64,000 nt of DNA from Bacilli bacterium (GCA_038321575.1 JBBQFD010000001.1:2982-66981); one strand, 5' to 3'; counted from the stretch's first letter, positions 11,561 to 55,730 are shown. Notes: a model not told the origin generated them from the sequence alone. A program made the numbers and translations.

Positions 11561-11642
11561 ACAACCACTCCTATTACTAATATTTTACTATAATTAACTA
11601 TTAATAACAACCAACTATAACAAAAATAGAGTGATGTTCACT

Positions 11643-13073
11643 CTATTTACTTAATCTGTTTATAATTACTTCTTTACCTAATAAATGAATTGTATCAGGT
11701 AATTCTGGTCCGTGCATTTGACCAGATACTTTAATTCTAATTGACATATATAATAATTTGCCTTTAGCACCACTTTTTTCTTTAGTATTATTGATAGCTA
11801 TATTTACGTTATCAATTGTCCAACTATTAATACTATTTATTTCATCTTTAAAAACATTCAAAGTATTACTAATTGATGAATCACTATTCATAAATTCTAA
11901 AGCTTCACCACTAATTTCAATATGTTCTTTAAAAAATAAATCCGTTAATAATACTATTTCTTTACCATATGATAAATGATTTTGATAAATCATAACTAAT
12001 TCTTTAATCCATTCCCCAGTCTTACTATTTAAATCATAAGCAGCTTGTAAATGAGGAACAGTAATTGCTAATAACTCATCAATTGTAAGTTTCTTTATAT
12101 AGTGAGCATTAACCCAATTTAGTTTTTTAACATCATATACCGCAGGTGATCTACTAATACGTTCTGGTGTAAATAACTTCGCTAATTCTTCTAAGCTAAA
12201 TATTTCATCCGTCGTTTCAGGATTCCAACCAAGGAATGCTAAATAATTAACCACTGCTGCTGGTAAGTAACCATCGTTATATAAATCCATAAATGATGAT
12301 GCTCCATGACGTTTACTTAATTTTTGACCATCAGCACCAACTACCATTGGTAAATGAATATAGGCTGGTTTTTCCCATCCAAAAGCATCATAAATTAAAT
12401 TATATTTAGGAGTTGATGATAAATATTCATTACCTCTAATAACATGGGTGATAGCCATTAAATGATCATCAATTACATTGGCAAAATTATATGTTGGATA
12501 GCCATCTGATTTTAATAAGATTTGATCTTCTAATAACTTATTTTCAATACTTATTTCACCATAGACAATATCTATAAAAGTACTTATACCGTCTTTTGGC
12601 ATCATTTGACGAATAACATATGCTTCCCCATTACTAGTTTTAGTAATTATTTCTTCTTTAGTATATTTTTTACAAAACCCATCATATAAAAATGGTATTT
12701 TATTAGTATCAGCTACTGCTCTTAATTCATTAAGACGTTCTTCACTGCAAAAACAGTAATAAGCTTTCCCTAACTCAACTAATTTTAAAGCATACTCTTT
12801 ATATAAAGGTAAGCGTTCACTTTGAATATATGGTCCATATTCTCCCCCATTACGTGGGCCTTCATCAGGGCTTAAACCACATAAAGAACAAGTATCATAG
12901 ATGAAATCAATAGCTCCTTCTACTTTACGTGTTTGATCAGTGTCTTCAATACGAAGAATAAAATCCCCATTATTGTGTTTAGCCACTAAATATTCAAATA
13001 TAGCACTTCTTAAATTACCTACATGCATCATTCCTGTTGGACTTGGCGCAAATCTTGTTCTTACTTTTTCCAT
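11643..13073 (-). CDS. gltX: glutamate--tRNA ligase
   Basis: The protein has RFAPSPTGMMHVGNLRSAIF (HIGH-class) and KLSKRHG motifs. Confidence 0.93.
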   Translation of the reverse strand: MEKVRTRFAPSPTGMMHVGNLRSAIFEYLVAKHNNGDFILRIEDTDQTRKVEGAIDFIYDTCSLCGLSPDEGPRNGGEYGPYIQSERLPLYKEYALKLVELGKAYYCFCSEERLNELRAVADTNKIPFLYDGFCKKYTKEEIITKTSNGEAYVIRQMMPKDGISTFIDIVYGEISIENKLLEDQILLKSDGYPTYNFANVIDDHLMAITHVIRGNEYLSSTPKYNLIYDAFGWEKPAYIHLPMVVGADGQKLSKRHGASSFMDLYNDGYLPAAVVNYLAFLGWNPETTDEIFSLEELAKLFTPERISRSPAVYDVKKLNWVNAHYIKKLTIDELLAITVPHLQAAYDLNSKTGEWIKELVMIYQNHLSYGKEIVLLTDLFFKEHIEISGEALEFMNSDSSISNTLNVFKDEINSINSWTIDNVNIAINNTKEKSGAKGKLLYMSIRIKVSGQMHGPELPDTIHLLGKEVIINRLSK

Positions 13074-29507: not shown

Positions 29508-29584
29508 TGGTCGGGAAAACAGGATTTGAACCTGCAACCTCCTGGTCCCAAACCAGGCGCACTACCAAGTTGTGCTATTTCCCG
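29508..29584 (-). tRNA. tRNA-Pro (anticodon TGG)
   Basis: The reverse complement reads CGGGAAATAGCACAACTTGGTAGTGCGCCTGGTTTGGGACCAGGAGGTTGCAGGTTCAAATCCTGTTTTCCCGACCA. Confidence 0.88.
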
Positions 29585-29588
29585 AAAC

Positions 29589-29665
29589 TGGTGCGCCCGG
29601 TGGGAGTCGAACCTGCAACCTTTTGATCCGTAGTCAAACGCTCTATCCAATTGAGCTACGGGCGC
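29589..29665 (-). tRNA. tRNA-Arg (anticodon ACG)
   Basis: The reverse complement reads GCGCCCGTAGCTCAATTGGATAGAGCGTTTGACTACGGATCAAAAGGTTGCAGGTTCGACTCCCACCGGGCGCACCA. Confidence 0.88.
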
Positions 29666-29686
29666 ACATATATATTTATCATTAAA

Positions 29687-29762
29687 TGGTGGCTTCGGTC
29701 GGAATCGAACCAACGACACCTTGATCTTCAATCAAGTGCTCTACCAACTGAGCTACAAAGCC
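29687..29762 (-). tRNA. tRNA-Phe (anticodon GAA)
   Basis: The reverse complement reads GGCTTTGTAGCTCAGTTGGTAGAGCACTTGATTGAAGATCAAGGTGTCGTTGGTTCGATTCCGACCGAAGCCACCA. Confidence 0.88.
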
Positions 29763-29770
29763 ATAATAAA

Positions 29771-29846
29771 TGGCGGTCCCGACGAGAATCGAACTCGCGA
29801 TCTTCTGCGTGACAGGCAGACGTGATAACCGCTACACTACAGGACC
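29771..29846 (-). tRNA. tRNA-Asp (anticodon GTC)
   Basis: The reverse complement reads GGTCCTGTAGTGTAGCGGTTATCACGTCTGCCTGTCACGCAGAAGATCGCGAGTTCGATTCTCGTCGGGACCGCCA. Confidence 0.88.
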
Positions 29847-29852
29847 AAAATA

Positions 29853-29929
<77 letters not shown>

Positions 29930-29961
29930 ATATTAAATAAGGTTGGTACATAATAAATAGA

Positions 29962-30054
29962 TGGCGGAGAAAGAGGGATTCGAACCCCCGCGCCGTTTTA
30001 CCGACCTCCCGGTTTTCAAGACCGGTCCCTTCAACCAGGCTTGGGTATTTCTCC
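29962..30054 (-). tRNA. tRNA-Ser (anticodon TGA), long variable arm
   Basis: The reverse complement reads GGAGAAATACCCAAGCCTGGTTGAAGGGACCGGTCTTGAAAACCGG...GGGTTCGAATCCCTCTTTCTCCGCCA. Confidence 0.85.
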
Positions 30055-30072
30055 TTGTTAAACATATATAAA

Positions 30073-30161
30073 TGGTGCCTAAGGCCGGACTTGAACCGGC
30101 ATGAAGTATTATCCTCGCAGGATTTTAAGTCCTGTGCGTCTACCTATTCCGCCACTCAGGC
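30073..30161 (-). tRNA. tRNA-Leu (anticodon TAA), long variable arm
   Basis: The reverse complement reads GCCTGAGTGGCGGAATAGGTAGACGCACAGGACTTAAAATCCTGCG...GGTTCAAGTCCGGCCTTAGGCACCA. Confidence 0.85.
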
Positions 30162-30169
30162 AAATTATA

Positions 30170-30245
30170 TGGTGTCTCGTACAAGATTCGAACTTGTGAC
30201 CCTTTGATTAAAAGTCAAATGCTCTACCGGCTGAGCTAACGAGAC
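30170..30245 (-). tRNA. tRNA-Lys (anticodon TTT)
   Basis: The reverse complement reads GTCTCGTTAGCTCAGCCGGTAGAGCATTTGACTTTTAATCAAAGGGTCACAAGTTCGAATCTTGTACGAGACACCA. Confidence 0.88.
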
Positions 30246-30270
30246 ATATTATTATATATGATATCAAAAA

Positions 30271-30346
30271 TGGCTGCCTCGGCTAGAATCGAACTAGCGA
30301 AATGCCACAGTCAAAGTGTGGTGCCTTACCGCTTGGCTACGAGGCA
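30271..30346 (-). tRNA. tRNA-Gln (anticodon TTG)
   Basis: The reverse complement reads TGCCTCGTAGCCAAGCGGTAAGGCACCACACTTTGACTGTGGCATTTCGCTAGTTCGATTCTAGCCGAGGCAGCCA. A U1:A72 pair is present. Confidence 0.85.
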
Positions 30347-30368
30347 ATCTAACCTAGCTATAATTAAA

Positions 30369-30452
30369 TGGTGGAGGGAGATGGATTCGAACCATCGAAC
30401 CCTAAGGAGTTGATTTACAGTCAACTGCGTTTAGCCACTTCGCTACCCCTCC
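30369..30452 (-). tRNA. tRNA-Tyr (anticodon GTA), long variable arm
   Basis: The reverse complement reads GGAGGGGTAGCGAAGTGGCTAAACGCAGTTGACTGTAAATCAACTCCTTAGGGTTCGATGGTTCGAATCCATCTCCCTCCACCA. Confidence 0.85.
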
Positions 30453-30456
30453 AACA

Positions 30457-30532
30457 TGGTGCCGAAAATAGGACTTGAACCCACAACCTACTGATTACAA
30501 ATCAGTTGCTCTACCAGTTGAGCTATTTCGGC
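30457..30532 (-). tRNA. tRNA-Thr (anticodon TGT)
   Basis: The reverse complement reads GCCGAAATAGCTCAACTGGTAGAGCAACTGATTTGTAATCAGTAGGTTGTGGGTTCAAGTCCTATTTTCGGCACCA. Confidence 0.88.
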
Positions 30533-30535
30533 ATC

Positions 30536-30612
30536 TGGTGGGAGATATAGGACTCGAACCTATGACCCCCTGCTTGTAAGGCAGGTGCTCTAACCAACTG
30601 AGCTAATCTCCC
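30536..30612 (-). tRNA. tRNA-Val (anticodon TAC)
   Basis: The reverse complement reads GGGAGATTAGCTCAGTTGGTTAGAGCACCTGCCTTACAAGCAGGGGGTCATAGGTTCGAGTCCTATATCTCCCACCA. Confidence 0.88.
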
Positions 30613-37332: not shown

Positions 37333-37362
37333 TAAAAAAAAGATACAATGTATCTTTTTTTA
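37333..37362. terminator. bidirectional terminator between convergent lipoprotein gene and pgi
   Basis: The hairpin aaaagataca-atg-tatctttt is flanked by A and T runs. Confidence 0.6.
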
Positions 37363-38556
37363 TTCAGCTAATATCTTCTTCATTGTTTCTTTGTATTTTT
37401 CGACTCCTTCTTGATTGAAGGCATCAACATCACTAAGATGACCATTAACCGCACAAGAAATCATAAAGAATTGAAGTATATATCCTAAATTAAAAGTTGT
37501 TAGTTTATCAACATTAATAATATTATTAATAACACCATCTTTAAAGTGGGCAATCGAGGTTGCTTTAGATGCAATATTATTTATTTCATTTAGACTCTTC
37601 TTATATTCATCAACTTCAATATCTTTTTCAACTTCTAAAATATTTATAACGGTTTCAAATAAAATATGACTACCGTCTTGAATAAATTGTCCCATCGAAT
37701 GAAGATCTCTCGTATTTATAATCCCAATTGGTAAAGTACCTTTACCATCTTTACCTAATGATTCTGAATATAATTGTTTTAACCATTCAGTAAGTGCATC
37801 TAATTTTGGTTCATAAGCAACAAAAGCTTCAACCATCGTTCCCTTTTTATAAAGAATATCTCTAATAATAGCATATTTAATTTGATTATTAACAGTCTTT
37901 TGTGATTCGATGGCACCATCTAATAACTCTTCAATATTGATACCAGCTACTGCGATTGGTAATAAACCAACCGGTGTAAAGACTGAATATCTACCACCAA
38001 TATCATTAGGAATATCAAATGTCTTATAACCTTCAGCATTTGCTTTTCCATTACCACCCGTTAAAATAATACGTTCTTTTAACTCTTCACTTGAATATTT
38101 TTCTTTCATAATATCTAAAATAAGGTCAAATACAACTCTAGTTTCAAAAGTTGTTCCTGATTTAGATATGTAATTAACAATAATGTCTTTGTTTTTAATC
38201 AATTCTTTTAATTCAATCAAATATTCACTTGATAGAGAAGTCCCCAGAAAATATATTTCTGGTTTTTTTTGTTCGTTATAGAAATATGGACTCAATGATT
38301 CAATTACTGCTAATGAACCTAAGTAAGAACCGCCAATTCCTACTACTAAAAATGCATCACAGTTGTTTTTAATCTGTAAACTAGTCTTTTTAATCTCATC
38401 AATCAGTTCTTGCTTTTTTAGATTTTTAGGATAAGCCCAACCCATCATATTTTGATGAGTTTTAAAATAATTACTTAATTCTTTGATTTTTGGATCATAG
38501 GTCGCAATCTCTTCATCAGTAATATCACTATAGGTTTTAAAATCAAAACTTATCAT
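37360..38556 (-). CDS. pgi: glucose-6-phosphate isomerase (Bacillus-type Pgi)
   Basis: VVGIGGSYLGSLA, SKSGTTFET, GGRYSVFTPVGLLPIAVAG and EWLKQLYSESLGKDGKG are present. It overlaps the giant upstream gene by 4 nt. Confidence 0.85.
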   Translation of the reverse strand: MISFDFKTYSDITDEEIATYDPKIKELSNYFKTHQNMMGWAYPKNLKKQELIDEIKKTSLQIKNNCDAFLVVGIGGSYLGSLAVIESLSPYFYNEQKKPEIYFLGTSLSSEYLIELKELIKNKDIIVNYISKSGTTFETRVVFDLILDIMKEKYSSEELKERIILTGGNGKANAEGYKTFDIPNDIGGRYSVFTPVGLLPIAVAGINIEELLDGAIESQKTVNNQIKYAIIRDILYKKGTMVEAFVAYEPKLDALTEWLKQLYSESLGKDGKGTLPIGIINTRDLHSMGQFIQDGSHILFETVINILEVEKDIEVDEYKKSLNEINNIASKATSIAHFKDGVINNIINVDKLTTFNLGYILQFFMISCAVNGHLSDVDAFNQEGVEKYKETMKKILAE

Positions 38557-41500
38557 TCTTTACCTCCCATATTTACTATTATTATATGTTTTTTCTTATC
38601 ATCAATCAAGTTTATAAGATTATCTTTAACTTTTTTTTCATCAATCATTATACTACTTACACCTTCAGATACATGGTCTTTATTATTTACTTTAATATCA
38701 TAAATAGTATTAAGATACTTATAAGTAAACTCAAAATTTAACCATGTTGAATCAATATGAGGATTGATTGTTAAAGTATTACCTGTTTTTTCTAAACCAA
38801 TAATTTTTTCGATACCTATTTTATAAGCCCAACTAGCCGAACCGGTATACCAAGTCCAACCACCGCGACCAGCGTAATTATTTTTTGAATAAATATCGGC
38901 TGCAATAACATACGGTTCAGTTTTATATTTTAAAACATCTATTGCATTAGTAGTACGATTAATTGGATTAATCATTTTTAAATAGCCGTATGCTTTATTT
39001 ATTTCACCAATCTTAATTAATGACATAATATACCATAAGGTTGCATGGGTATATTGAGCTCCATTTTCTCTAACTCCCGGTAGGTAATCACTTATATAAC
39101 CAGGGTCATTTTTTTCTTCAAAGAAAGCGGGGCTTAATAATTTAATTAAATGATTATCGTTGTCAACTAATCTATTGTCGATTTCTTTAATTAATGGTTT
39201 TATATTACGTGGATCAATAACATTGCTTAAAATACTCCATGATTGTGATAATAAATCTATTTGGCATGAAGCATTATTCTTAGAACCAAGGGTGTCACCA
39301 TTATCAAAGAAAGCTCTTAGATACCAACTACCATCCCAAGCATTAGCATTAATTGATTTTTTTAATTCAATAGCTGATTCATGACACGTTTTAATAAAAT
39401 CAACATCTTCTTTAGGGGCAATTTCTTCTATCTTATTTAAAAGATCATATAAGAAAAATCCTACCCAAACACTCTCTCCGATACCTTTATTACCAACTTT
39501 ATTCATACCATCATTCCAGTCACCACTACCCATCAAAGGTAGGCCGTTGGTCCCTAGTTGATTTAACGCTTTAGTAATTGATAATTTTAAATGATAGTAA
39601 AGTGTTTCTTGAGTTGCACTATATGAATAATTAATGCCTTTTTCGTCTTGTTGTTCACCTAAGTGTTCACCTTCAACAAAAACTACTTTTTCATCTAAAA
39701 TGGTGTAATTATTAGTTACTTTTAAATATTCATATGTTACATATAATAGCCATAAATAATCATCAGAGAACTTAGTGCGTGCCCCTAACGATAATTCTTC
39801 ATGCCACCAATGTAGAACATCTCCTTCAATGAATTGGTGTTTGGCATGTTTTAAGATTTGATCTCTGGTAAAAGTTGGATTACTATATATTAAACTCATT
39901 GAGTCTTGTAATTGATCTCTAAAACCAATTGCGCCACCAACTTGATAGAAAGCTGATTTAGCATATAATCTTGATGCATAAACTTGATATAAATACCAAC
40001 CGTTCATCATATAATCAAATGATTTATCAGGTGTCTTTATAACAATGTTTGATAGTTTTTCTTTCCAGTATTCAACTACTTCAATAAATTCATTAGCGAT
40101 AAACTCTTTAGTTTGATACTTGTTAATAATATCTTCGGTGTTATTAGCACAACCAAGCATAAATGATAATTCTTTACTTTCATCTTTAAATAGATCAATA
40201 CTAATCGAGATTGTTTTTGTTGAGACATCATTTAAATCATATTTTACAATCTTTTCGCTTGATGACATAAATACTTTTTCATTTCTAAAGACTTTATTAT
40301 AAACATTTTGCATAATCAAACTATTTTGTGTAACATCAAAATCAACTAAAATATGAGAGTTAGTTTGTTCTTCCGTTTCACCTAAAACCGGTTTAATAAC
40401 AAAGTCGATATCTAATTTAATTTTAGTACTCTTCTTATTGTTAATTTTTATGTCATAAAGTTTTAGATTATCACTTCTGGGGACAAATACTTTTATTTCC
40501 ATATCATAATCTTCAGTATTAGCAATAAAAATCGAATACCCAAATCCGTGTTTTACTAGACTTGGAATAAACTTTTGTTTATTAATATAAATAGCTTCAC
40601 TAGCAGGATCACCTACTGCATCATTGCTCCATGATGTTAATTTAAACTGACGACTATTGTATGCATAAGTAAATCCACCTAGATTGTTAGTTATAACGGT
40701 TCCGAAAGTCTCATTAGCAATTATATTTGACCATGGCGCTGGTGTATCATTATTAAAAACGTGATACTCACTACCATTTTTACTAAACCCACCATATTGA
40801 TTGTCAAAATCAATCTTTGGAGATTTAGTTTCTAACAACGTTATTAAATTAGAAGTTTTGCTTACTTCTAATTTAATTGGTTCTAAAAGATCTAAATCAA
40901 ATATTTGTTGATTTAATGACTTATGAATTGAAGCATCAAAATATATTTTAGTAATTGTTTTAAACAACACTAATTCTTCATTACTCAATTCTGATATTGT
41001 ATATACATTCCCTGGTGAGTTTTCAAAATAATTTAAATTATTAATACGATACATCAAATTATTAATGTATTTAGCAACTAATTCTTTTTTACCATCAACT
41101 TCATTATTTATAATAACCACATCTAAATAAATAGCGCGGCTCTTATAAAACTCATAAGCTTGTAAGATTTCTTTTATAAAACCTGAATCCTCAGCATTAT
41201 CAATATTAACTAAGATTAATGGTAAATCACCAGATACTCCAAACTTCCATAAATTATCTTGCGATAAATTATTAATATGTAAGATTTCATGACGTTTTAT
41301 GCTAATTGGTAGTGTTTGATAAATGTACTTAAGCATAGTGTTATATGACATTAACTCACGACCATTTAAACCAGCATAGTGATTGCGCATATTATTTAAT
41401 ATAGTTGCCATTTCAAACGCAACATCAACTATTTTCTTATTATTATAAGTGTTAACTATTTCATCAATTTGTTCTCTTGACTTGCCGAAACCAACTAATA

Positions 41501-44500
41501 AGTAAATTATCTTTTTACTATTAGCTTTAATTTTAATATTCTTACGAATACTCATGATCGGATCAATCAAGTCATCAATATCACATGACAAACGTTCACT
41601 ATTACATATTTTAAAAGGATTCGCCGTAGTATTGTTACGACCAATGAAATTAGCGCGTGATGTTTCAAATTCAAAATTGATACTATCTTCACCATCAATA
41701 AACATACGATTAACCACAAAATACTTAGTATTTTCTTTAGTGCGTGAACTTCTCTTAAAGATTAATGATGATGTTTTCTCATCTATTTCACTAGCAATTG
41801 TTAAACTGTTAAAAGCACGATGTGCAATATCTTCTTCATTACGAGCCATAATAATTTCAGAATAAGACGTTACTTCTAAATTAATATCATCATTACTAGT
41901 ATTTTCAAAAGTAATTTTACGTATTTCCGCATTATGTTCCTTGGTAACCATGATTTCCGTATTAGTAATTATATCTTCATCTTCTCTTGTATACTTGATT
42001 CGATCACTAGCAAAAACCACACGATATTTATCAGGTGCTTTCTTTGCTGGTAAATACGTATTGGTCCAAAAATTATTAGTTTTAAGATTTTTAATATATA
42101 TAAACACTCCGTAATTCTCATCCGTTACATTGCGGTAACGATTAATAAATAAATTTTTATATTTACTAAAACCTATACCGCGATCATTGATGAAAGTAGA
42201 GTAAAAACCATTAGATAAAACTCCCACACTAGGCATTGGCATAATACCAGTTTGTTCTCTAACGTCAGTATCTTGAATATCTCGTTTATAAGAATATTTC
42301 TTATAACGTTCTATTTTTAGATCAATATATGGTCTAATTTGAACTTTTTCTTTTAATAATAATTCAATTGCTTTAATGTTTTTATCAGCATGAAAATATT
42401 CTTGAATAATATTTTCGTGAAAATAATTAGCGATACTAGATAGTATCATCCCTTGATGATGTGAATAATAAGCTTTAACAACAACTTTATCTTCATTGTC
42501 ATAAGCTTCATATAAACCATATTTACCATACATATCTAATTTTTTAAGTTTCTTAATATTTTCATATACACCATTTGGATATCTACCCAAAGCCATTAAT
42601 GATCCATATGGAGCAATAACAATTAACGGGGTTTCACTATCTTGGAACTTTAAATGTGGGACCCCAAAAGCTTTATATTTATAATTTTGTGAGTCATCTA
42701 ATTCATTATAAGCTGATTCAGTTATACCCCATGGTAATTTGGGATCAGCTTCACGCATAAATTCTTTTTGAGCATAATACGCAAATAAATAAGTTTCATC
42801 TAATAAAGTGTGCTTATATGTTTTCATAAATATTAATGGCATATAATATTCAAACATTGTTCCAGTCCATGAAACAACACCTTTATATAGTTTATATTTA
42901 GTTAACGTCTTATCTAAGCAAAACCAATGTTTAAAAGGTACATCCCCTTTAGCAATAGCAATAAAACTAGAAAGGCGTGACTCTGATAAGAAATTATTAT
43001 AATGATATGGAACTAATTTACCTTCATTAATCGTATAACCAACACTAAAGACATCAAGATCATGATTATATAACTTAGAGAAATCAGTAGCAGCAATTAA
43101 TTTATTAACACGATATTCTAAAACTTTATAATGAGTTAAGTGTTCTAAGAATCCTTTTAAGACATATAACGATGAAACAAAATTACCACTATCAGCAGTT
43201 GATATAAAGAATGGTGGTATTGCTTTCATTTCATAAATATTATACCAATTATATAAATGACCATTCCATTTAGCTAAACCCTCAACACTCTTTAAAATAT
43301 TAGCTAATAAATCGATTGCGACAGTTTCGTTAATAATTTTTAATTCATAAGCTGAAATAACACTGGTTATCGATAAACCAACATTAGTTGGCGAAGTACG
43401 ATAATCTATCTTTTCTTCACGATTTGATTGAAAATTATCTGGCATCAAATAATTAAATTCTCTTGTTAAATAGTCCTCAAAGAAACTCCAAGTTCTGATA
43501 GCAATATCTCTAATTTCACCTTTAGCTTTGCCACTCAACGGTTGTGATTCATACTTAATATCAAGACTTATAAAGAACATTAAGAATGGCGCAAATATCC
43601 ATATCGAAGCCAAGAAGTATGCTACATAAATATAATCTTGTTTAAAATAGTATGCAAGCCATATTATTAATAATGTAAATAAATAATTAGCTTTAAAATT
43701 ATTAATATAAGTTAACAGATTATTTTTAGAACGCTTTTCCACTTCTTCCGAAGTAATCCAATTTAGTAAATTCTTTTTACTTATTAGCATGCGATAAACT
43801 GATTTAATAATCGCATCTAAATATAAACAAGTTTCATATGGCAATAGAGCTAAAATAATAAATGATTTTATAACTACTGCAAATATACCAGTAATTAAAT
43901 TCAAATAATACTTTAAAAATATATCATATTTTTGTTTTGAAAATATCTTAGCAAATAAATAAAAGAAGATTGGGGTCGCTATTATAATCATAACTATAAC
44001 CAAAGATATTGTTGGATTAAGTTTACTAATAGTAAATCCATATATGATTAATAACAGCAATGCTAAACTCTTTAAACTTCTAACTAAATTATCAAATATT
44101 TTCCACTTTTCAATTAAATTGATCGGATTTTTAACAACTTCGTTCTTTTTATTTCTTACTTTGTTTTTAAGCCAACTAATAATTTGCCAGTCACCTCTGG
44201 TCCAACGATGATGTCGACCAGCATCATTTAAGTATTTAGATGGGAATCCATCAAAGAATTCAACATCACTAACAAATCCACAACGTAAGTAATTTCCCTC
44301 TAACAAATCGTGGCTTAAAATAAGATTATCAGGGAAGTTATTATTGATTATTTCATCAAAAATCTCTAAATCATATATTCCTTTGCCAACAAAACTACCT
44401 TCATTAAAAACATCTTGATATAAATCAAAACTCTTGGTCGTATATATATCTAAACCTCCAAGACCTGCGAATAACTGTGTATATTGTGACTTATCAGTCG

Positions 44501-46259
44501 CTTCTAATTCAATACTAATTCGTGGTTGCATAATTGCATAACCAGCAATAACCTTCTTGCGGTCTTTTGATAAAACTGGTTTGTTCATTGGGTGAATCAT
44601 TGCCCCAATTAATTTTAAAGCAGTATTCAAAAGCAGTTTAGTATCTGCATCTAAAGTTATAACATATTTTATTTTAGTTTTAAAATCTTTAAAAGTATGA
44701 TAATTAAAATATAAATCTTGATCTTCTTTATTTAATTTGTGTAATAATAATTGATTAAAATGTAATAAAGCTCCTCTTTTTCTTTCATAACCTAAATAAG
44801 AAGCCTCACTTTCATTATAAAAGCGATTACGATACGCAAAATTAAATACCTTACTACCATATTTTTCGTTAAGTTGATTAACTTTCTTAATGCCAGCATC
44901 GATAACTATTTGATCCATAGCAACATTTTCTGTTGTCTCGCTAGTTACATCACCAAGCAAAGTAAAGTATAAATTAGTTGTACGGTTTGATAAATAATAT
45001 AACTCTAAATTATCAAACATTTGGTTAACTTTGTTAGCGCTATTTAAAATAGTTGGAATAACTACCATCGTACTATATTCAGCCGGAAAACTTTCTTCAA
45101 CTTTGATTTTAAATAGACTTTTCGTATTTACTGTTTTTAATAGTATTTGGTTTACTATATCAATAACATATCCTAATGACGGAATAAGTAAAAGCAGGAA
45201 CCCCGTTATTCCAAAAAAGTATGAACCTATAAACGACAAAATCAATGTTAATGCAAACACGGTTGTAATATACACAACAGTTCTTGTTTTATAATCTTTT
45301 TCTTCAAATAAATAAAATCCGATATGTTTTTCGTTATTGTCAGCAACTTTTACTAAGTTCTTAATGTATTGATACTCATTAATTTTATTATTTTTAACTG
45401 TTTTCTTAATTTGATTACGATATTCTGCTTTCGAACTTTCATACATCGAATCATATATATTAACTTTCTCATTAATTAATGCTTTTTCTGTATAACTAAC
45501 ACTAGAATATAGTAATTCCATCTTAACTTTAATCATTTTTTTAAGTGATTCAAACAAATTAACCATTAATAAATTCTCGTTTAATTTTTCTTCGTGTTGT
45601 TCTTTAATAATATCCTTTAATGACATACTATTTTTAATTAATAATTCATTTAATTTTTTAAAGACTGATTCTGAAATAGAATCAAGTTCACTTAATTTAT
45701 AGTTTAATTCTTCAATATAATAATGATTATCTAAAATCGAATTATTGATTTTTATATAATCATATATATTACGATTTTTCTTTTGATATTGATTTTTTTC
45801 GATTATTTTAAAAGCACGATCAATACTATGTGTTTCATCAAGTTTGTTGTTTAATTTCATTGCTAGTTTCTTAAGCTCATTAATTATGATAATTCTGAGA
45901 ACAATATTTATATAATCAAATTCATCATAAGAAAAATAATCTTTATTTGCCTCTTGGTAATTATTAATTTGTTCAAATACTATCGCCAAACTAAATTTGA
46001 AATTTTGTTGCACTAAAAAACTATAGAGTAATTCCCTTATTTGTTTCTTTCGACTATTTTTAATTTTTAAGATACTTTTCTTTTTTAAACTACCTTCAAT
46101 TTGAATTTGTTGTTCACTTATTAAATAGTAGTTATCAATAATCCATTCATTAATACTACCAACGCTTTGGTTTTGCTTTGTATATGAGACTAATTTTTTA
46201 TAATACACCGTTATATAATGAATATCCAAATTTAATTTTTTTAATACGATATTATTCAT
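38553..46259 (-). CDS. giant membrane glycosyltransferase-GH94 glycoside phosphorylase fusion, cyclic beta-1,2-glucan synthase (Cgs/NdvB/ChvB)-like, 2568 aa
   Basis: The N-terminal third has TM clusters flanking a GT-A-type region (LDADT DxD motif, HRWTRGDWQ). The C-terminal ~1000 aa has GH94 hallmarks (MGSGDWNDGMN, GGWTWYTGSASWAY). A middle alpha-helical region links them. Confidence 0.75.
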   Translation of the reverse strand: MNNIVLKKLNLDIHYITVYYKKLVSYTKQNQSVGSINEWIIDNYYLISEQQIQIEGSLKKKSILKIKNSRKKQIRELLYSFLVQQNFKFSLAIVFEQINNYQEANKDYFSYDEFDYINIVLRIIIINELKKLAMKLNNKLDETHSIDRAFKIIEKNQYQKKNRNIYDYIKINNSILDNHYYIEELNYKLSELDSISESVFKKLNELLIKNSMSLKDIIKEQHEEKLNENLLMVNLFESLKKMIKVKMELLYSSVSYTEKALINEKVNIYDSMYESSKAEYRNQIKKTVKNNKINEYQYIKNLVKVADNNEKHIGFYLFEEKDYKTRTVVYITTVFALTLILSFIGSYFFGITGFLLLLIPSLGYVIDIVNQILLKTVNTKSLFKIKVEESFPAEYSTMVVIPTILNSANKVNQMFDNLELYYLSNRTTNLYFTLLGDVTSETTENVAMDQIVIDAGIKKVNQLNEKYGSKVFNFAYRNRFYNESEASYLGYERKRGALLHFNQLLLHKLNKEDQDLYFNYHTFKDFKTKIKYVITLDADTKLLLNTALKLIGAMIHPMNKPVLSKDRKKVIAGYAIMQPRISIELEATDKSQYTQLFAGLGGLDIYTTKSFDLYQDVFNEGSFVGKGIYDLEIFDEIINNNFPDNLILSHDLLEGNYLRCGFVSDVEFFDGFPSKYLNDAGRHHRWTRGDWQIISWLKNKVRNKKNEVVKNPINLIEKWKIFDNLVRSLKSLALLLLIIYGFTISKLNPTISLVIVMIIIATPIFFYLFAKIFSKQKYDIFLKYYLNLITGIFAVVIKSFIILALLPYETCLYLDAIIKSVYRMLISKKNLLNWITSEEVEKRSKNNLLTYINNFKANYLFTLLIIWLAYYFKQDYIYVAYFLASIWIFAPFLMFFISLDIKYESQPLSGKAKGEIRDIAIRTWSFFEDYLTREFNYLMPDNFQSNREEKIDYRTSPTNVGLSITSVISAYELKIINETVAIDLLANILKSVEGLAKWNGHLYNWYNIYEMKAIPPFFISTADSGNFVSSLYVLKGFLEHLTHYKVLEYRVNKLIAATDFSKLYNHDLDVFSVGYTINEGKLVPYHYNNFLSESRLSSFIAIAKGDVPFKHWFCLDKTLTKYKLYKGVVSWTGTMFEYYMPLIFMKTYKHTLLDETYLFAYYAQKEFMREADPKLPWGITESAYNELDDSQNYKYKAFGVPHLKFQDSETPLIVIAPYGSLMALGRYPNGVYENIKKLKKLDMYGKYGLYEAYDNEDKVVVKAYYSHHQGMILSSIANYFHENIIQEYFHADKNIKAIELLLKEKVQIRPYIDLKIERYKKYSYKRDIQDTDVREQTGIMPMPSVGVLSNGFYSTFINDRGIGFSKYKNLFINRYRNVTDENYGVFIYIKNLKTNNFWTNTYLPAKKAPDKYRVVFASDRIKYTREDEDIITNTEIMVTKEHNAEIRKITFENTSNDDINLEVTSYSEIIMARNEEDIAHRAFNSLTIASEIDEKTSSLIFKRSSRTKENTKYFVVNRMFIDGEDSINFEFETSRANFIGRNNTTANPFKICNSERLSCDIDDLIDPIMSIRKNIKIKANSKKIIYLLVGFGKSREQIDEIVNTYNNKKIVDVAFEMATILNNMRNHYAGLNGRELMSYNTMLKYIYQTLPISIKRHEILHINNLSQDNLWKFGVSGDLPLILVNIDNAEDSGFIKEILQAYEFYKSRAIYLDVVIINNEVDGKKELVAKYINNLMYRINNLNYFENSPGNVYTISELSNEELVLFKTITKIYFDASIHKSLNQQIFDLDLLEPIKLEVSKTSNLITLLETKSPKIDFDNQYGGFSKNGSEYHVFNNDTPAPWSNIIANETFGTVITNNLGGFTYAYNSRQFKLTSWSNDAVGDPASEAIYINKQKFIPSLVKHGFGYSIFIANTEDYDMEIKVFVPRSDNLKLYDIKINNKKSTKIKLDIDFVIKPVLGETEEQTNSHILVDFDVTQNSLIMQNVYNKVFRNEKVFMSSSEKIVKYDLNDVSTKTISISIDLFKDESKELSFMLGCANNTEDIINKYQTKEFIANEFIEVVEYWKEKLSNIVIKTPDKSFDYMMNGWYLYQVYASRLYAKSAFYQVGGAIGFRDQLQDSMSLIYSNPTFTRDQILKHAKHQFIEGDVLHWWHEELSLGARTKFSDDYLWLLYVTYEYLKVTNNYTILDEKVVFVEGEHLGEQQDEKGINYSYSATQETLYYHLKLSITKALNQLGTNGLPLMGSGDWNDGMNKVGNKGIGESVWVGFFLYDLLNKIEEIAPKEDVDFIKTCHESAIELKKSINANAWDGSWYLRAFFDNGDTLGSKNNASCQIDLLSQSWSILSNVIDPRNIKPLIKEIDNRLVDNDNHLIKLLSPAFFEEKNDPGYISDYLPGVRENGAQYTHATLWYIMSLIKIGEINKAYGYLKMINPINRTTNAIDVLKYKTEPYVIAADIYSKNNYAGRGGWTWYTGSASWAYKIGIEKIIGLEKTGNTLTINPHIDSTWLNFEFTYKYLNTIYDIKVNNKDHVSEGVSSIMIDEKKVKDNLINLIDDKKKHIIIVNMGGKE

Positions 46260-46360: not shown

Positions 46361-47722
46361 ATGAAAGAATTTAATGAGAATATTTTTAGAGCTTATGATA
46401 TAAGGGGTATTTACGGAAGTGAACTTACGGATGATTTGGCCTACAACCTTGGATTAGCATTTGGTACCAAATTAAAATTAGAGCACAAGACAAGAACTGT
46501 TGTTGGGTATGATAACCGCACTTCTTCAGTGTCGCTTTTTAATGCCCTCACTAAAGGTATTAAAGAAACAGGCATTGATGTTATTAATATTGGATTAGTC
46601 ACTACTCCGATGTATTATTTTGCTTGGCAACTATTTCAAGTTGATTCTGGCATTATGATTACGGCTTCACACAATCCTAAAGAACACAATGGTTTTAAAA
46701 TATCATTTAATGGCACCTTTAATGCCTATGGTGAGATGATTCAAGAATTCAAGGAATTCATCAAAAAAGGAAAATTTATAAGCGGTCAAGGACTTACTAT
46801 TAATGAAGATATAAAAGACCGTTATATTGACTTTGTTTTAAAATCAATTAAATTAGGTGAAAGACGACTAAAAATTGTAGTTGATTCAGGTAATGGTACT
46901 TCAGCCATTATTATAAAAGATGTTTTAAATAAATTAAATATTGATTATATCCCTCTTTATACAGAATCAGATCCTAATTTTCCTAATCATCATCCTGATC
47001 CTAGTGTTCCAAAAAACATGGAAATGCTTAGTGAAGTTGTTAGAAGTAAACAAGCTGATGTTGGATTTGCATATGATGGTGATGCTGATCGTATGGGTTT
47101 AGTTGATGAATCCGGCAACATGATTAGTAATGATCACTTTATGATTATGATTGTGAGAGATATTATTAATAACTTAAGCGATAAACGTATTTTGTTTGAT
47201 GTTAAATGTTCAAAGAGTTTAGAAGATGAAATTATTAAATTAGGTGGAACCCCAGTTATTTCAAGGACTGGTAATTCATATCTTAGAGCAAGAATCGTTG
47301 ATGATAATATCCCTTTTGGCGGTGAGTTATCAGGACATATTTTCTTTAATGATAAATTCCCTGGTTATGATGATGGTATTTATGCATCACTTAGAATGAT
47401 GGAAATATTAAGCAATACTAATAAAAAGGTTAGTGAATTATTAAGTGGTATCACTAAATATTACTCAACACCTGAATTAAAGATGAATGTTAGCGATGAT
47501 AAAAAATTCGCTTTAATTGAACAAGTAAAAACTTACTGCCAATCTAAAAATTATAAATTTTTAGATATTGATGGTTGTAAAGTCATATTCGATGATGGCT
47601 TTGTTCTTGTTAGAGCATCAAATACCGGTCCTCAAATAACCTTAAGGTTTGAAGCGACAACTGAATTAAGACTTAATGAAATGAAAACTGAATTTGAAAA
47701 TGTTATTAATAAAATGCAATAA
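46361..47722 (+). CDS. phosphoglucomutase/phosphomannomutase family protein
   Basis: The active-site serine loop (TASHNPKEHNGFK), the metal loop (DGDADR) and GELSGH are present. It is divergent from the giant synthase gene. Confidence 0.88.
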   Translation: MKEFNENIFRAYDIRGIYGSELTDDLAYNLGLAFGTKLKLEHKTRTVVGYDNRTSSVSLFNALTKGIKETGIDVINIGLVTTPMYYFAWQLFQVDSGIMITASHNPKEHNGFKISFNGTFNAYGEMIQEFKEFIKKGKFISGQGLTINEDIKDRYIDFVLKSIKLGERRLKIVVDSGNGTSAIIIKDVLNKLNIDYIPLYTESDPNFPNHHPDPSVPKNMEMLSEVVRSKQADVGFAYDGDADRMGLVDESGNMISNDHFMIMIVRDIINNLSDKRILFDVKCSKSLEDEIIKLGGTPVISRTGNSYLRARIVDDNIPFGGELSGHIFFNDKFPGYDDGIYASLRMMEILSNTNKKVSELLSGITKYYSTPELKMNVSDDKKFALIEQVKTYCQSKNYKFLDIDGCKVIFDDGFVLVRASNTGPQITLRFEATTELRLNEMKTEFENVINKMQ

Positions 47723-47723
47723 A

Positions 47724-47754
47724 AGAAAAATCTAGGTTATCCTAGATTTTTTTA
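47724..47754. terminator. bidirectional terminator between convergent PGM and GLUG-pilin genes
   Basis: The hairpin aaaatctagg-ttat-cctagatttt is followed by T-rich sequence. Confidence 0.6.
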
Positions 47755-50700
47755 ATTTGCTTCAACTGAAATACTTGTACCACTCAGTTTCCAAATAAAC
47801 TCTAAAGTAGTTGTATCTGTAAAATTAAATGAAGCATAATTCGTATAAATAGTTGTTTCTAATAACGCTTCTGCTGTAGAATTAATTCCATTTGGATCAT
47901 ACGTGTTAGCACTAATTACTGTACTACCGTTAATTGTTGATGTGGCTAAAGCAACCCCTTCTGATAACGGATTGTTGTCCTTAGCACTAATACGGTAAAC
48001 ATTTGCAGTTCCTACTATTGCACCACCGCGATATAATGATCCGCGTATTGACCCATTTGTATATCCCCAGCTGCTTGGCCAGCCACTATCGTAGGTATAT
48101 CCAGCAATTCCACCAACATAATTTGTTCCTGTTACATTTCCTTCTGACATAACATCAGAAGCATTACCATAATTATAACCAATTACTAATCCTGTATATG
48201 TAGTTCCCACTATGTTTCCAGATACATATATATCAGAAACATTGGTGCTACTTCCTTGATTATATCCAACTACTCCTCCAGTATGTGTCCCTGTTGCTGT
48301 TACAGCCAAGGTTTTTATATTCATTCCTTTTACTGAACCAGATCCGGTATTATTTCCGACTATTCCTCCGGTATAGTTACTACCATTTACAACAGTATTT
48401 GTAACATTGATTTTACTTATTATTCCTATATTTACACCGGCAATAGCACCAGTATAATTATCACCATTAATATTTAATCCTGTTAAATTAAAATTAGTAA
48501 CAGTCCCACTATTATATCCGAATATTCCGGTATTATAGGCACCGCTCAAGACAATATTATTTAAAGTCTTCCCATTACCATTAAAATTACCAGTAAATCT
48601 ATTGTTATCGCTTGATAATGTATAAAAGTATTTATCACTAAAATTGATATTATTCATTAATTTATAATAAGATCCTGGTGATAAACTAATTTGATTAAAT
48701 TCTTCGTAATTAGTTATCAAATACGGATCATCACTAGCGCCAGTACCGCTCATCGTAATAGCGGTATTGGCTATTTTAGGAATTATAACACCGCTGCTAT
48801 TGTAATCAAAATAATAACCATCAGCATCATTATCACCACCAATTATAGTATCTAGAGTTATTTCGTAAGTATTAATACTTGATATTCTAGAAGGACTAAT
48901 ATCAGAACCGTCAACTCCATAAAAACTAGTACCATTGATAGCTACACCATTAACTAAAATATCACTAGCCGACATAGCTTTATTAATTGTTCCGGCATTA
49001 CCAGTTGGTGATATTTTATTATAATTTGACGTCGCTGTAATATTGCCTTTTTTATAAATAACACCATTTATATAGCCATTTATATAACCATATGATTCTG
49101 GCCAACCACTATTATGATTATATCCAGCAATTCCTCCAACATAATTTATGCCAGTTACATTACCTTCAGTTGTAACACTCTTAATATTTCCTTTGTTATA
49201 ACCGGTAACTAATCCAACAAAATTAACCCCTGTTACGTTTCCTTTGTAAGAAACTGTTGATACATATGCATTGAGACCTCCGTCTAATAATCCAGCAATT
49301 CCACCAGTATTATCTCCAGTTCCCGTAATAGTTGCGTCAATTACATATGCACCGATAATTTTACCGCCACTGTTGCATCCTACTATTCCGCCGGTATTAG
49401 AAACGCCATTTACATTAAGATTTGTAACATTAATTTTACTAATTGTTCCTGCATTTAAGCCTGCCATTGCACCAGTACAATTTCCTCCACTAATGGTTAA
49501 TCCTGTTAAATTAACACTGGTAATAGTTCCACCATTGTATCCAAATATTCCAGTATTATAAGCACCATTTAAAACAATATTACTTAATGTCTTTCCGTTG
49601 CCATTAAAATTACCAGTGAATCTGTTATTATCACTAGATAATGTATAGAAATACTTGTTACTGAAACTAATGCTATTCATTAATTTATAATAAGACCCTA
49701 GCGAGAAACTAATTTGATTAAGTTCTTCATAATTAGTTATCAAATATGGATCATCACTAGCACCAGTACCGCTCATCGTAATAGCGGTATTAGCTATTTT
49801 AGGGATTATAACACCGCTGCTATTGTAATCAAAATAATAGCCATCAGCGTCATTGTCACCACCAATTATGGTATCTAGAGTTATTTCATAAGTATTAATA
49901 TCTGTTATTTTAGAAGAACTAATATCAGAGCCATCAGCTCCATAAAAACTAGTACCATTGATAGCTACACCATTAACTAAAATATCACTAGCCGACATAG
50001 CTTTACTAATTGTTCCGGCATTATCAGTTGGTGTTATTTTGTTATAAGTTGATTCGGCTGTAATATTTCCTTTTTTATAAAAAACACCAGCTATATAACC
50101 ATTCATATAACCATATGATTCTGGCCAACCACTATTATAAGTGTATCCAGCAATTCCTCCAATATGATTTTGACCACTTATGTTGCCTTCAGTGGTAACA
50201 TTTTTGATACTACCTCTATTATAACCAGTAACTAATCCAAGATAACACCATCCTGTTACATCACCTTTATAAGAAGTATTTGAAATATAAGCGTTAGAAC
50301 CTCCTATAAGAAATCCAACAAGTCCGCCAACATAGTTGGTACCGATAACATTTGTATCAATTACATATGCACCGATAATTTTACCACCTTCATTATATCC
50401 GGCAATTGACCCAGTATAAGTATTACCAGTAATTAACGAATTACTTAAACTCAAATCTTTAATCGTTCCGCTGTTGTATGCGAATAAACCCACATAATTT
50501 TGCGTTGGTCTATTAATGTAAAGATTATTAATAAATTTATTGTTGCCATTAAAAGTTCCAGAAAAAATGTAAGTATTATTATTTATCGGCAAGAACCCTA
50601 GGCCCGTTGTAAGTTCGGTTTTCAATGATTCAATGATAGTGTTACCATTTATATCACCAAAAGCAATTGTTGAACTATTAATATACGATTTATCATCTTG

Positions 50701-51339
50701 ATAATTTAAATTATAATTTAAATAAATTGTTTTGCCATTAAAATTTTCAGTCTTAGCGAGATTCGAAAAAGCCACTAAATCTTCAATGCTGTTTATATTA
50801 CATGTTGTATTTCCAGCATAGTTTTCAGTTGCTCCTGATCCGCATATAACTCCAGGATTAGAATCAACTACTTGTGAATATATAACGGTATCGCTATGAA
50901 TACCCATAATATCTGCTAAAAAGGTTGTCTCATCAAGAATTGATTCAACAATAGTTGGTTCTACATCAGTGTAATCTTTTACAACAGCAATTTGTAGGTC
51001 ATTGTTCCAAATACCCAAATAAACAACTCCTTCGTTATTTACTTCAACTTTACCACTATCAGGGAGTTTACCTTTAATATTTAATTTAATTTCACTTGTT
51101 TGAACACCATCTTCAAAAGTTACAACAAAACTAGAAACTGTCGTTTCTGTACTATTTAATTCGGCATACTTCATTTCAGCAGCTGAAACAATATTATCAG
51201 CACTTCTTAAAAAAACATCTGCTCTTGCTTTTTGAATGACACCAAAGATGGTTGGTGTTGCTATTAATGCAATAACCGACAAAATCACAATTACTGCTAA
51301 TAACTCGATTAAAGTAAATCCTCTTTTAATATTTTTCAA
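47752..51339 (-). CDS. giant class-III-signal-peptide (type IV pilin/ComGC-like N-terminus) protein with GLUG-motif repeats, 1195 aa, TTG start
   Basis: The N-terminus MKNIKRGFTLIELLAVIVILSVIALIATP is a prepilin peptidase site (G|FTLIE). The body has more than 20 GLUG motifs (NYVGGLVGF, NHIGGIAGY, NTGGIVGCN, NFVGLVTGYN) and an internal ~340-aa duplication. The start codon is TTG, preceded by AAGGGGG. Confidence 0.8.
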   Translation of the reverse strand: MKNIKRGFTLIELLAVIVILSVIALIATPTIFGVIQKARADVFLRSADNIVSAAEMKYAELNSTETTVSSFVVTFEDGVQTSEIKLNIKGKLPDSGKVEVNNEGVVYLGIWNNDLQIAVVKDYTDVEPTIVESILDETTFLADIMGIHSDTVIYSQVVDSNPGVICGSGATENYAGNTTCNINSIEDLVAFSNLAKTENFNGKTIYLNYNLNYQDDKSYINSSTIAFGDINGNTIIESLKTELTTGLGFLPINNNTYIFSGTFNGNNKFINNLYINRPTQNYVGLFAYNSGTIKDLSLSNSLITGNTYTGSIAGYNEGGKIIGAYVIDTNVIGTNYVGGLVGFLIGGSNAYISNTSYKGDVTGWCYLGLVTGYNRGSIKNVTTEGNISGQNHIGGIAGYTYNSGWPESYGYMNGYIAGVFYKKGNITAESTYNKITPTDNAGTISKAMSASDILVNGVAINGTSFYGADGSDISSSKITDINTYEITLDTIIGGDNDADGYYFDYNSSGVIIPKIANTAITMSGTGASDDPYLITNYEELNQISFSLGSYYKLMNSISFSNKYFYTLSSDNNRFTGNFNGNGKTLSNIVLNGAYNTGIFGYNGGTITSVNLTGLTISGGNCTGAMAGLNAGTISKINVTNLNVNGVSNTGGIVGCNSGGKIIGAYVIDATITGTGDNTGGIAGLLDGGLNAYVSTVSYKGNVTGVNFVGLVTGYNKGNIKSVTTEGNVTGINYVGGIAGYNHNSGWPESYGYINGYINGVIYKKGNITATSNYNKISPTGNAGTINKAMSASDILVNGVAINGTSFYGVDGSDISPSRISSINTYEITLDTIIGGDNDADGYYFDYNSSGVIIPKIANTAITMSGTGASDDPYLITNYEEFNQISLSPGSYYKLMNNINFSDKYFYTLSSDNNRFTGNFNGNGKTLNNIVLSGAYNTGIFGYNSGTVTNFNLTGLNINGDNYTGAIAGVNIGIISKINVTNTVVNGSNYTGGIVGNNTGSGSVKGMNIKTLAVTATGTHTGGVVGYNQGSSTNVSDIYVSGNIVGTTYTGLVIGYNYGNASDVMSEGNVTGTNYVGGIAGYTYDSGWPSSWGYTNGSIRGSLYRGGAIVGTANVYRISAKDNNPLSEGVALATSTINGSTVISANTYDPNGINSTAEALLETTIYTNYASFNFTDTTTLEFIWKLSGTSISVEAN
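48355..50394. repeat. ~1.02 kb near-identical tandem duplication (2 copies) inside the GLUG-pilin gene
   Basis: Long DNA stretches in 48550..48960 and 49570..49980 are near-identical at a 1020-nt offset. Protein residues about 316-655 and 656-995 are collinear with few substitutions. Confidence 0.8.
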
Positions 51340-51452
51340 AATATGCCCCCTTATTGTTATTAATAAAATTATAACATTATTTTCTGTTTTTGAAAAGAAA
51401 AAGACTAATTATTAGTCCTTTTATGATACATATAAATATAAATTTATAAAAA

Positions 51453-52278: not shown

Positions 52279-53058
52279 TTATGGTTGCATTACTCCGAAG
52301 AATACTAACCATGCCAATACTGATTTAGCAACTAAGCTAAGAATAATATAAGCACGTTCGCCATATAGATAATCTGCCCATTTGCCTTTTTCTTTATATT
52401 GTAAGATCATATTAATTGGGAATAGATTAAAGAATACTAAATATGATCCAAATACCGCATAAACAAACCATGGTATTTGAGTAGGATCAGAATTACCAAA
52501 GGCATACATAATAACTACTATCCAAGGAATTAAGCCGGCGATTGATCCAAATATAAATGGTAACCAATCAATTTTCTTGTGATTTTGATTCATTTTTTCC
52601 ATTAATAAACCAAATAGATTCATGGTTGCATTTAAACCAAAGATCAACATTAATGACCCAATGTCTTTAACGCCGAATAATACAGCAATTAAGACAATCA
52701 TTAGTGATGAGCTAAGAGCATATTCATACCATCTAAACATATTCATATTATTACTTATTTGTTTAATGTATCCCTTATTAAATCTAGGTGATGCTACTAT
52801 AAAGTGAAACATCGCTGATAAGAATAGAAATACTGATACTAATATCCCAAATGGTAAAGTAAACAATACCTTTTGAACATTTACTAAATGCATTGTTGCT
52901 TTATCAAAAGTTAAAAAGTTTGAATATATATCTGGTCTAAAATTAGCCACCTTTGCCACATTTAACGCTACATATAGCATAAATGCTCCTTGAATAAAGT
53001 GGAAAAATCCCATAAATAAATTAAATCTTGTTAGGGCCTTAAATTTGTTTTCTAACAT
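52279..53058 (-). CDS. heliorhodopsin
   Basis: Seven TM helices are present. The 259-aa protein has FRWYEYALSSSLMIVLIA (TM3, Glu counterion) and GERAYIILSLVAKSVLAW (TM7, Schiff-base Lys), the hallmark blocks of heliorhodopsins. Confidence 0.85.
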   Translation of the reverse strand: MLENKFKALTRFNLFMGFFHFIQGAFMLYVALNVAKVANFRPDIYSNFLTFDKATMHLVNVQKVLFTLPFGILVSVFLFLSAMFHFIVASPRFNKGYIKQISNNMNMFRWYEYALSSSLMIVLIAVLFGVKDIGSLMLIFGLNATMNLFGLLMEKMNQNHKKIDWLPFIFGSIAGLIPWIVVIMYAFGNSDPTQIPWFVYAVFGSYLVFFNLFPINMILQYKEKGKWADYLYGERAYIILSLVAKSVLAWLVFFGVMQP

Positions 53059-55238: not shown

Positions 55239-55730
55239 TTATTTATAAATTTTTCTTATTTTAATTGTGCTTGCACTTGTCTTAAGATTATTTAAATGCT
55301 CTATTTGCCAATTTCTTTCAGCTTCCAATATATCATCCACATTAGCGTTATCTTTATTTAAATAATATAATGCTGAAATAACATACATTGCTGATCCTTC
55401 TGAATGAGTTTTAACGTGACAAGTAGCAAGGGCATGACTACACGCTCTAGCGATTTGACATGCAACTTTATCGGTTGCCTCAAGTTCTCTAGCAACTGCA
55501 AGCGTGGGATATGTAAATTTTCTTGCATCCCACATTTTAACTTCATCACTTAGCCATTTATTTAACATATTAAGCGCATCACGAGGTCTTGTTTCATTAG
55601 GATATTTATCTTCAATTAAATATAAATACTTTGTCACACAATCAAATGCCCATCTTGCCAATAATTTTTGATCGGTATCTTTTATTAATTCAACTAATCG
55701 CGGATCATGTCGTAATTTTTTTAAATCCAT
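55239..55730 (-). CDS. hypothetical alpha-helical protein (163 aa)
   Basis: It is an intact ORF upstream of the FAD oxidoreductase. I recognise no catalytic motif. Confidence 0.5.
   Translation of the reverse strand: MDLKKLRHDPRLVELIKDTDQKLLARWAFDCVTKYLYLIEDKYPNETRPRDALNMLNKWLSDEVKMWDARKFTYPTLAVARELEATDKVACQIARACSHALATCHVKTHSEGSAMYVISALYYLNKDNANVDDILEAERNWQIEHLNNLKTSASTIKIRKIYK

Follow-up and report, generated by a model that had tools for sequence, protein, structure and literature searches.

A diverged one-module tandem duplication in a giant beta-helix prepilin gene of an uncultured Bacilli-like bacterium

The window, by which we mean the whole 64-kb stretch of DNA analysed, counted from its first letter, comes from an uncultured Bacilli/'Mollicutes'-like bacterium of low GC content (29%). 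No other protein found exceeds 81% identity to its GltX, and the named matches are from Bacilli or Mollicutes MAGs. Since a Mur ligase and a family-4 glycosyltransferase (MraY-type) are encoded on the same 29% GC, Bacilli-like chromosome, the organism is probably wall-bearing. On the minus strand lies a large gene for a prepilin-type protein, read from a TTG start codon at 51339 to a stop codon at 47752-47754 (Table 1). Upstream are two matches to consensus only: a promoter-like TTTTCA-17-TATAAT with TG (51396-51368) and a Shine-Dalgarno sequence, AAGGGGG, at 51352-51346, 6 nt 5' of the TTG. The terminator-like hairpin behind the stop codon is bidirectional and common to the pilin gene and the convergent PGM gene. 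The pilin gene is solitary, its neighbours being the genes for a giant GH94 protein, PGM, an SDR and a heliorhodopsin. The 64-kb window has no other prepilin motif or second pilin, no peptidase A24, T2SSE or T2SSF gene and no other type IV pilus machinery, so that assembly of the protein into a filament is putative.

Several other features of the window were noted in passing. The heliorhodopsin gene (52279-53058, minus strand; PF18761, E 1.3e-98) lies two genes upstream of the pilin gene. The GH94 gene (38553-46259, minus strand) encodes a 2,568-aa protein whose GH94 catalytic, GH94 supersandwich and glucoamylase-like domains recall the architecture of cyclic beta-1,2-glucan synthase. On either side of the gene are a PGI-like gene (37360-38556, minus strand) and a phosphoglucomutase gene (46361-47722, plus strand), and the region may be a glucan-synthesis cluster adjoining the pilin gene. 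Farther away are 12 tRNA genes in about 1.1 kb (29508-30612, minus strand; Pro, Arg, Phe, Asp, Met, Ser, Leu, Lys, Gln, Tyr, Thr, Val) and a gene for an Imm5-like putative immunity protein (55239-55730, minus strand; PF21805, E 1e-33); none of the nearby ORFs scanned is an obvious toxin partner for it.

The N-terminus of the pilin gene product has the features of a class III signal peptide: a short, polar leader with a terminal Gly, followed by F at +1, E at +5 and a hydrophobic alpha-1N stretch (MKNIKRG followed by FTLIELLAVIVILSVIALIA). This region matches the Pfam N_methyl profile at 1.8e-7 and TIGR02532 at 5.2e-8, and in a sequence search of the PDB pilins match at aa 5-60, i.e., at the pilin N-terminus only. 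For the rest of the head we relied on an AlphaFold2 model built on 41 family members (mean pLDDT 87.5 and pTM 0.75 for the whole protein). The model predicts an alpha-1 helix at aa 10-64 and then beta-strands at aa 71-131, with pLDDT of about 73-86, which is the pilin arrangement of a long N-terminal alpha-helix on a small beta-sheet head. Two Cys columns in the pilin head are nearly invariant among the homologues (at least 90% of those aligned in alignment A2). The window protein has no Cys before aa 166 and so lacks this pair; its Cys residues are at 166, 180, 365, 621 and 655, and the first two fall at the start of module D1. The conserved pair is not a defining feature of monoderm pilins.

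Behind the head, the model predicts three long right-handed beta-helical modules, D1 to D3, which together comprise about 1,030 aa. The best Foldseek match in the PDB is 3N6Z, a putative IgA1 protease of Bacteroides ovatus (BACOVA_03286; E 1.8e-6, TM-target 0.54), followed by the streptococcal (S. pneumoniae) IgA1 protease structures 6XJA/6XJB at E 3-4e-4, all at probability 1.0. Lower-ranked matches are generic right-handed beta-helices (Ag43, tailspikes, PL6 lyases). The predicted fold is thus a right-handed beta-helix like that of 3N6Z and the IgA1 protease N-terminal domain. GG[IV][AV]G-type turns are present in the window protein, and Pfam Glug matches it in seven weak stretches under the cut-off (E 4.5); among the homologues, 10 of 41 match Glug (PF07581) and 7 of 41 match Peptidase_M26_N (PF05342). 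A peptidase function was considered and ruled out because the protein has no HExxH motif, and Pfam gave no match to an M26 catalytic domain. At about 128 kDa, the gene product is a standalone modular type IV prepilin, with a signal peptide, a small pilin head and a rod predicted to consist of three beta-helix modules.

Comparison of the gene with itself identified the repeat. When the gene was shifted against itself, a single outlier appeared at 1,023 nt, with 54% identity gene-wide; all other shifts gave at most 37%. The period corresponds to 341 codons, and the repeat is in frame, tandem and collinear. Shifted by 341 residues, aa ~338-658 align with ~679-999, and allowing a one-residue indel lengthens the match, there being a one-codon indel near the start of the copies. 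The two copies meet at 49365/49366, where GGIVGCNSG is followed by GKIIGAYVID (in the DNA, GGATGCAACAGTGGC next to GGTAAAATTATCGGT). A repeat search also returned several families with 1,023-nt spacing, and TRF reported two trivial short repeats only. Over the 963-nt ungapped core the copies have 83.2% DNA identity (162 mismatches); 420 other in-frame shifts gave a mean of 33% and a maximum of 38%, so the repeat is far beyond chance. An earlier note on this DNA had described a ~1-kb in-frame tandem collinear duplication in a prepilin-type gene with GLUG-like repeats, at 48355-50394 (aa ~316-655 and 656-995). The outlier at 1,023 nt bears this out, and our refined limits lie within about 12 nt of those positions.

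Table 1. Features of the pilin gene and its internal repeat. Coordinates are window positions; residues are those of the window protein.
Feature	Coordinates	Strand	Residues	Basis or remarks
Whole gene, modular prepilin-type protein	47752..51339	-	1,195 aa in all	ORF list, translation
Expression signals, consensus matches only	51346..51396	-		Sequence reading and consensus scan
Terminator-like hairpin and T-run	47726..47751	-		Directly 3' of the stop codon
Class III (prepilin) signal peptide and N-methylation motif, MKNIKRG followed by FTLIELLAVIVIL	51259..51339	-	1-27	Profile matches
Pilin module	50860..51339	-	1 to ~160	AlphaFold2 model
Module D1, GLUG/M26-N-type beta-helix (predicted); C-terminal half within copy A	49777..50847	-	~165-521	Three-module alignment, model, fold matches
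Module D2, starts MSGTGASDDPY; chimera	48754..49776	-	522-862	Three-module alignment
Module D3; N-half within copy B, C-half the diverged original	47755..48753	-	863-1195	Three-module alignment
Duplicate copy A, begins GKIIGAYVID	49366..50385	-	319-658	Self-comparison
Duplicate copy B, begins GKIIGAYVID	48343..49365	-	659-999	Self-comparison
Low-divergence tract in copy A, putative gene-conversion patch	49675..50169	-	391-555	Partner in copy B 48652-49146
Longest perfect DNA match between copies, 68 nt	49938..50005	-		Partner 48915-48982
Segment of copy A			338-399	dS 0.74, dN 0.25, omega 0.33
Segment of copy A			400-539	dS 0.22, dN 0.057, omega 0.26
Segment of copy A			540-599	dS about 2.1, dN 0.057, omega 0.03
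Segment of copy A			600-658	dS 0.66, dN 0.22, omega 0.33

The copies had also been called near-identical, and here the alignment disagrees. A near-identical array should exceed roughly 95% DNA identity over hundreds of nucleotides, a level that 83.2% over 963 nt does not reach. Stretches of 20 codons vary between 63% and 98% in identity, and about 92% is attained only in the central ~420 nt. Apart from the longest perfect match, the next longest are 35, 34 and 29 nt. At the protein level, BLASTP identity of copy A to copy B is 80%.

The boundaries of the copies are offset from those of the modules. In the three-module alignment, the N-half of D2 is sister to, and nearly the same as, the N-half of D3, while the C-half of D2 stands in the same relation, again nearly the same, to the C-half of D1. 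The outer halves, D1-N and D3-C, are diverged, and every segment of D2 has a relative in D1 or D3. The middle module is thus a chimera of its neighbours. A diverged partial third copy, missed by the earlier note, lies in the C-half of D3, where aa 1041-1111 have about 62% nt identity to aa 700-770 in D2.

How old is the duplication? Nei-Gojobori estimates over 321 codons gave an overall dS of 0.53 and dN of 0.12 (omega 0.22). In the flanks of the repeat, dS is 0.66-2.1, near synonymous saturation, while the protein is conserved. These values point to an old duplication under purifying selection, not a very recent one. The center is different: in a test of synonymous clustering over 254 conserved degenerate codons, synonymous differences occupy 19 of the 141 conserved codons inside the low-divergence tract (13%) versus 49 of the 113 outside (43%; permutation p about 0.003). 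Because flank dS is high, omega is low and the synonymous differences are clustered, we favor an old duplication and a later conversion patch, with a single gene-conversion event over ~500 nt as the simplest account of the central tract. Local codon or nucleotide constraint, instead of conversion, could account for part of the lower central dS.

The same numbers bear on the proposal, made in the earlier note, that the duplication is very recent, its copies still near-identical and the array readily expanded or contracted by RecA. That ~420 nt in the center are 92% identical, including the 68-nt perfect run, fits such an origin, as do close relatives elsewhere in the family that differ by one unit. 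However, 83% identity, 162 differences in 963 nt and a dS of 0.53 do not, and flanks near synonymous saturation around a conserved protein refute it for the block as a whole. We consider a very recent origin highly improbable. The further suggestion that the repeat might be an assembly artefact, i.e., a single-copy region written twice or two strain haplotypes joined in tandem by a metagenome assembler, draws on the source, which looks like a MAG contig from an uncultured Bacilli-like organism. Copies generated in this way would be identical, yet here 17% of positions differ, every 150-nt window containing 8 or more differences and every 100-nt window 3 or more, so that short reads distinguish the copies. 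Moreover, the reading frame and fold are kept across the junction, which falls in a turn between predicted strands 653-657 and 660-673 (residues 653-673 have pLDDT >90 in the AlphaFold2 model). The omega of 0.22 indicates purifying selection, and the same multi-module layout is found in dozens of independently assembled homologues. An artefact is very unlikely, less probable still than a very recent duplication.

To place the repeat in its family, we searched 5.8 billion proteins. The identical protein is present once in NCBI, on a contig of 78,008 nt, and the next-closest homologue is 39% identical. Among the candidates tested, 420 proteins matched at E <= 0.001, most of them with N_methyl and from Bacilli MAGs. 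By comparison, public relatives of the host GltX (11643-13073, minus strand) are at 79-81% identity, which leaves either very rapid evolution of the pilin or the lack of an orthologue in the sister lineages as the explanation. The homologues have 1-5 units, each 271-345 aa long, and a partial unit at the terminus. Units were compared by masked sliding-window BLAST, whole-protein self-BLAST giving the diagonal only. The best within-protein unit identity is 64-100% in most homologues, compared to 30-45% between proteins, and after dereplication 43 of 53 units found their best match inside the same protein. Unit number differs even between close relatives: the alignment of P0031 (1,488 aa) with P0050 (1,192 aa) covers 1,191 residues at 97.2% identity, and its sole gap, of 295 aa, is one unit. 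P0023 and P0034 differ in the same way. In L001, a 32%-identical homologue from the 'Tenericutes' MAG UMGS872, a tandem repeat of 915 nt at 10804-12066 has 94-100% DNA identity; judged by sequence, it is much fresher than the window repeat and independent of it. Taken together, the comparisons indicate that module gain, loss and homogenization recur in this family, of which the window gene is a comparatively old and diverged instance.

Scans of contigs returned little more. A 38-nt probe from the perfectly repeated core had no matches in the metagenome contigs scanned. In genome contigs, the generic prepilin peptide GFTL[IV]ELLA mostly retrieved unrelated small pilins and missed the genome of the window itself, and among the large pilins in that scan the unit was found only in L001 and L002. 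The closest homologues, P0002 and P0008, were considered as positional orthologues for dating and rejected because their loci lack synteny with the window: they lie among tandemly arrayed large pilin paralogues, either downstream of prfA/prmC or beside a PrmC-like methyltransferase gene. Two such arrays hold three giant prepilin-type paralogues each, whereas the window gene is solitary: L082 5988-14980 (1,113, 1,016 and 811 aa), directly downstream of prfA and a PrmC-like methyltransferase gene, and L081 1287-11668 (846, 1,453 and >1,112 aa), with only the PrmC-like methyltransferase gene upstream. A Bacilli MAG contig, at L073 3408-14200, has five consecutive prepilin-type paralogues of ~685 aa with near-identical N-termini.

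The structure of the repeat suggests how it arose. A single tandem duplication of one period in a two-module ancestor would give the chimera pattern of D2; it would have been an in-frame duplication of one module-length (341 codons), most likely through unequal crossover between two homologous modules that created the new D2. All three breakpoints directly follow GLUG-like glycine turns (AGYNEG to the left of A, VGCNSG between A and B, VGNNTG to the right of B). Such a crossover would have joined equivalent structural rungs, and because the breakpoints follow these turns, the extra middle module would be a structurally seamless chimera. A rule that duplication edges always lie at GLUG turns was tried on the homologues and rejected: several do, not all. 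The event is old, with a flank dS of about 0.7-2 under purifying selection, and the ~500-nt conversion patch would have re-homogenized the center later.

A three-module ancestor and gene conversion alone would leave the same chimera pattern. On this account, nothing was duplicated in the window lineage, and adjacent modules of an ancient three-module protein were repeatedly homogenized. It gains from the pervasive within-protein homogenization in the family, from the mosaic divergence along the block, and from the closest homologues, which already have 3 or more modules. However, the block is continuous and collinear, spans exactly one period and breaks off sharply at equivalent GLUG turns, and a D2 with no private segment is more simply explained by a single duplication. 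We therefore regard conversion alone as a serious but distinctly less probable alternative, and an old one-module duplication in a modular prepilin, later partly homogenized, as the best explanation overall, with a probability of roughly 0.7.

The repeat had been called an obvious substrate for RecA-mediated expansion or contraction. The 68-nt perfect match and the 92% core permit recombination, and further RecA-dependent change in copy number is possible; however, it should be inefficient at 17% divergence, given the general homology requirements of recombination. Copy-number change is seen in relatives (P0031/P0050), not for the window gene. In the protein, the extra module would lengthen a rigid beta-helix rod on, or anchored by, a type IV pilin module. 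The rod probably has a role in adhesion, and with the added length an adhesin-like rod displayed on a type IV filament may reach farther or gain in valency.

Modular pilins and surface proteins with tandem duplications the size of a domain are of a kind already known. PilB and PilC of Streptococcus sanguinis are modular type IV pilins, and such proteins were surveyed by Raynaud et al. 2021 (PMC8179133). The window protein is a modular pilin in the sense of that survey, i.e., a pilin module with domains that are not specific to type IV filaments. Like those proteins, it has a class III signal peptide, a small pilin module and grafted non-pilin modules, and its host is a monoderm of the Bacilli lineage. 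Unlike modular pilins with one vWA or lectin module, it has three large beta-helix modules, and its gene is solitary, away from any pilus operon. Dataset S1 of the survey already lists this architecture class, as IPR012902-IPR011493 with 6 proteins, which the text calls M26-related (PMC8179133). With the GLUG/Peptidase_M26_N beta-helix (IgA1 protease N-terminal domain, 6XJA; 3N6Z) the window protein has in common the predicted fold and the GG[IV][AV]G turns. It differs from M26 IgA1 proteases in having neither HExxH nor the M26 catalytic domain, and its N-terminus is a prepilin signal, not an LPXTG or Sec signal.

Long tandem-repeat surface proteins of Gram-positive bacteria, such as alpha C/Rib of group B streptococci, Esp, and SasG/Aap, vary in repeat number through recombination. 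Their repeats are present in many copies that are near-identical at the DNA level. As in those proteins, the repeats described here are domain-sized, in frame and tandem, belong to a predicted surface protein, and resemble one another more closely inside one gene than across genes; the number of repeats varies between close relatives within the pilin family. In contrast, the window gene has two copies at 83% identity, and the anchor would be the pilin module instead of sortase attachment.

In itself the duplication is of little consequence: it is an old domain duplication kept by selection, neither an assembly error nor an ongoing rearrangement, and duplication of one module is ordinary for this protein family. 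The family-level behavior is the more interesting lead. GLUG/M26-N modular pilins have so far only been catalogued (the 6 entries of the 2021 survey); here they comprise at least several hundred proteins from uncultured Bacilli-like MAGs, in a family with 1-5 modules that shows clear signs of concerted evolution and of changes in module number between near-identical orthologues. Its members are therefore candidates for work on how the adhesins of type IV filaments alter their length and surface. We tentatively raise a broader reading, for which the odds are well short of even. Giant GLUG-beta-helix prepilins could be a fast-evolving 'accordion' family of uncultured low-GC Bacilli/Mollicutes-like bacteria, often encoded by orphan genes or tandem paralogue arrays, in which unequal recombination at GLUG rungs keeps changing module number and homogenizing modules. 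The outcome might be programmable length or antigenic variation of a pilus-tip adhesin; or the product might be an adhesin of the cell surface that uses its pilin helix only as an anchor, like the archaeal class III signal-peptide 'bindosome' proteins. If this were true, the window gene would be one frozen snapshot of module-number change.
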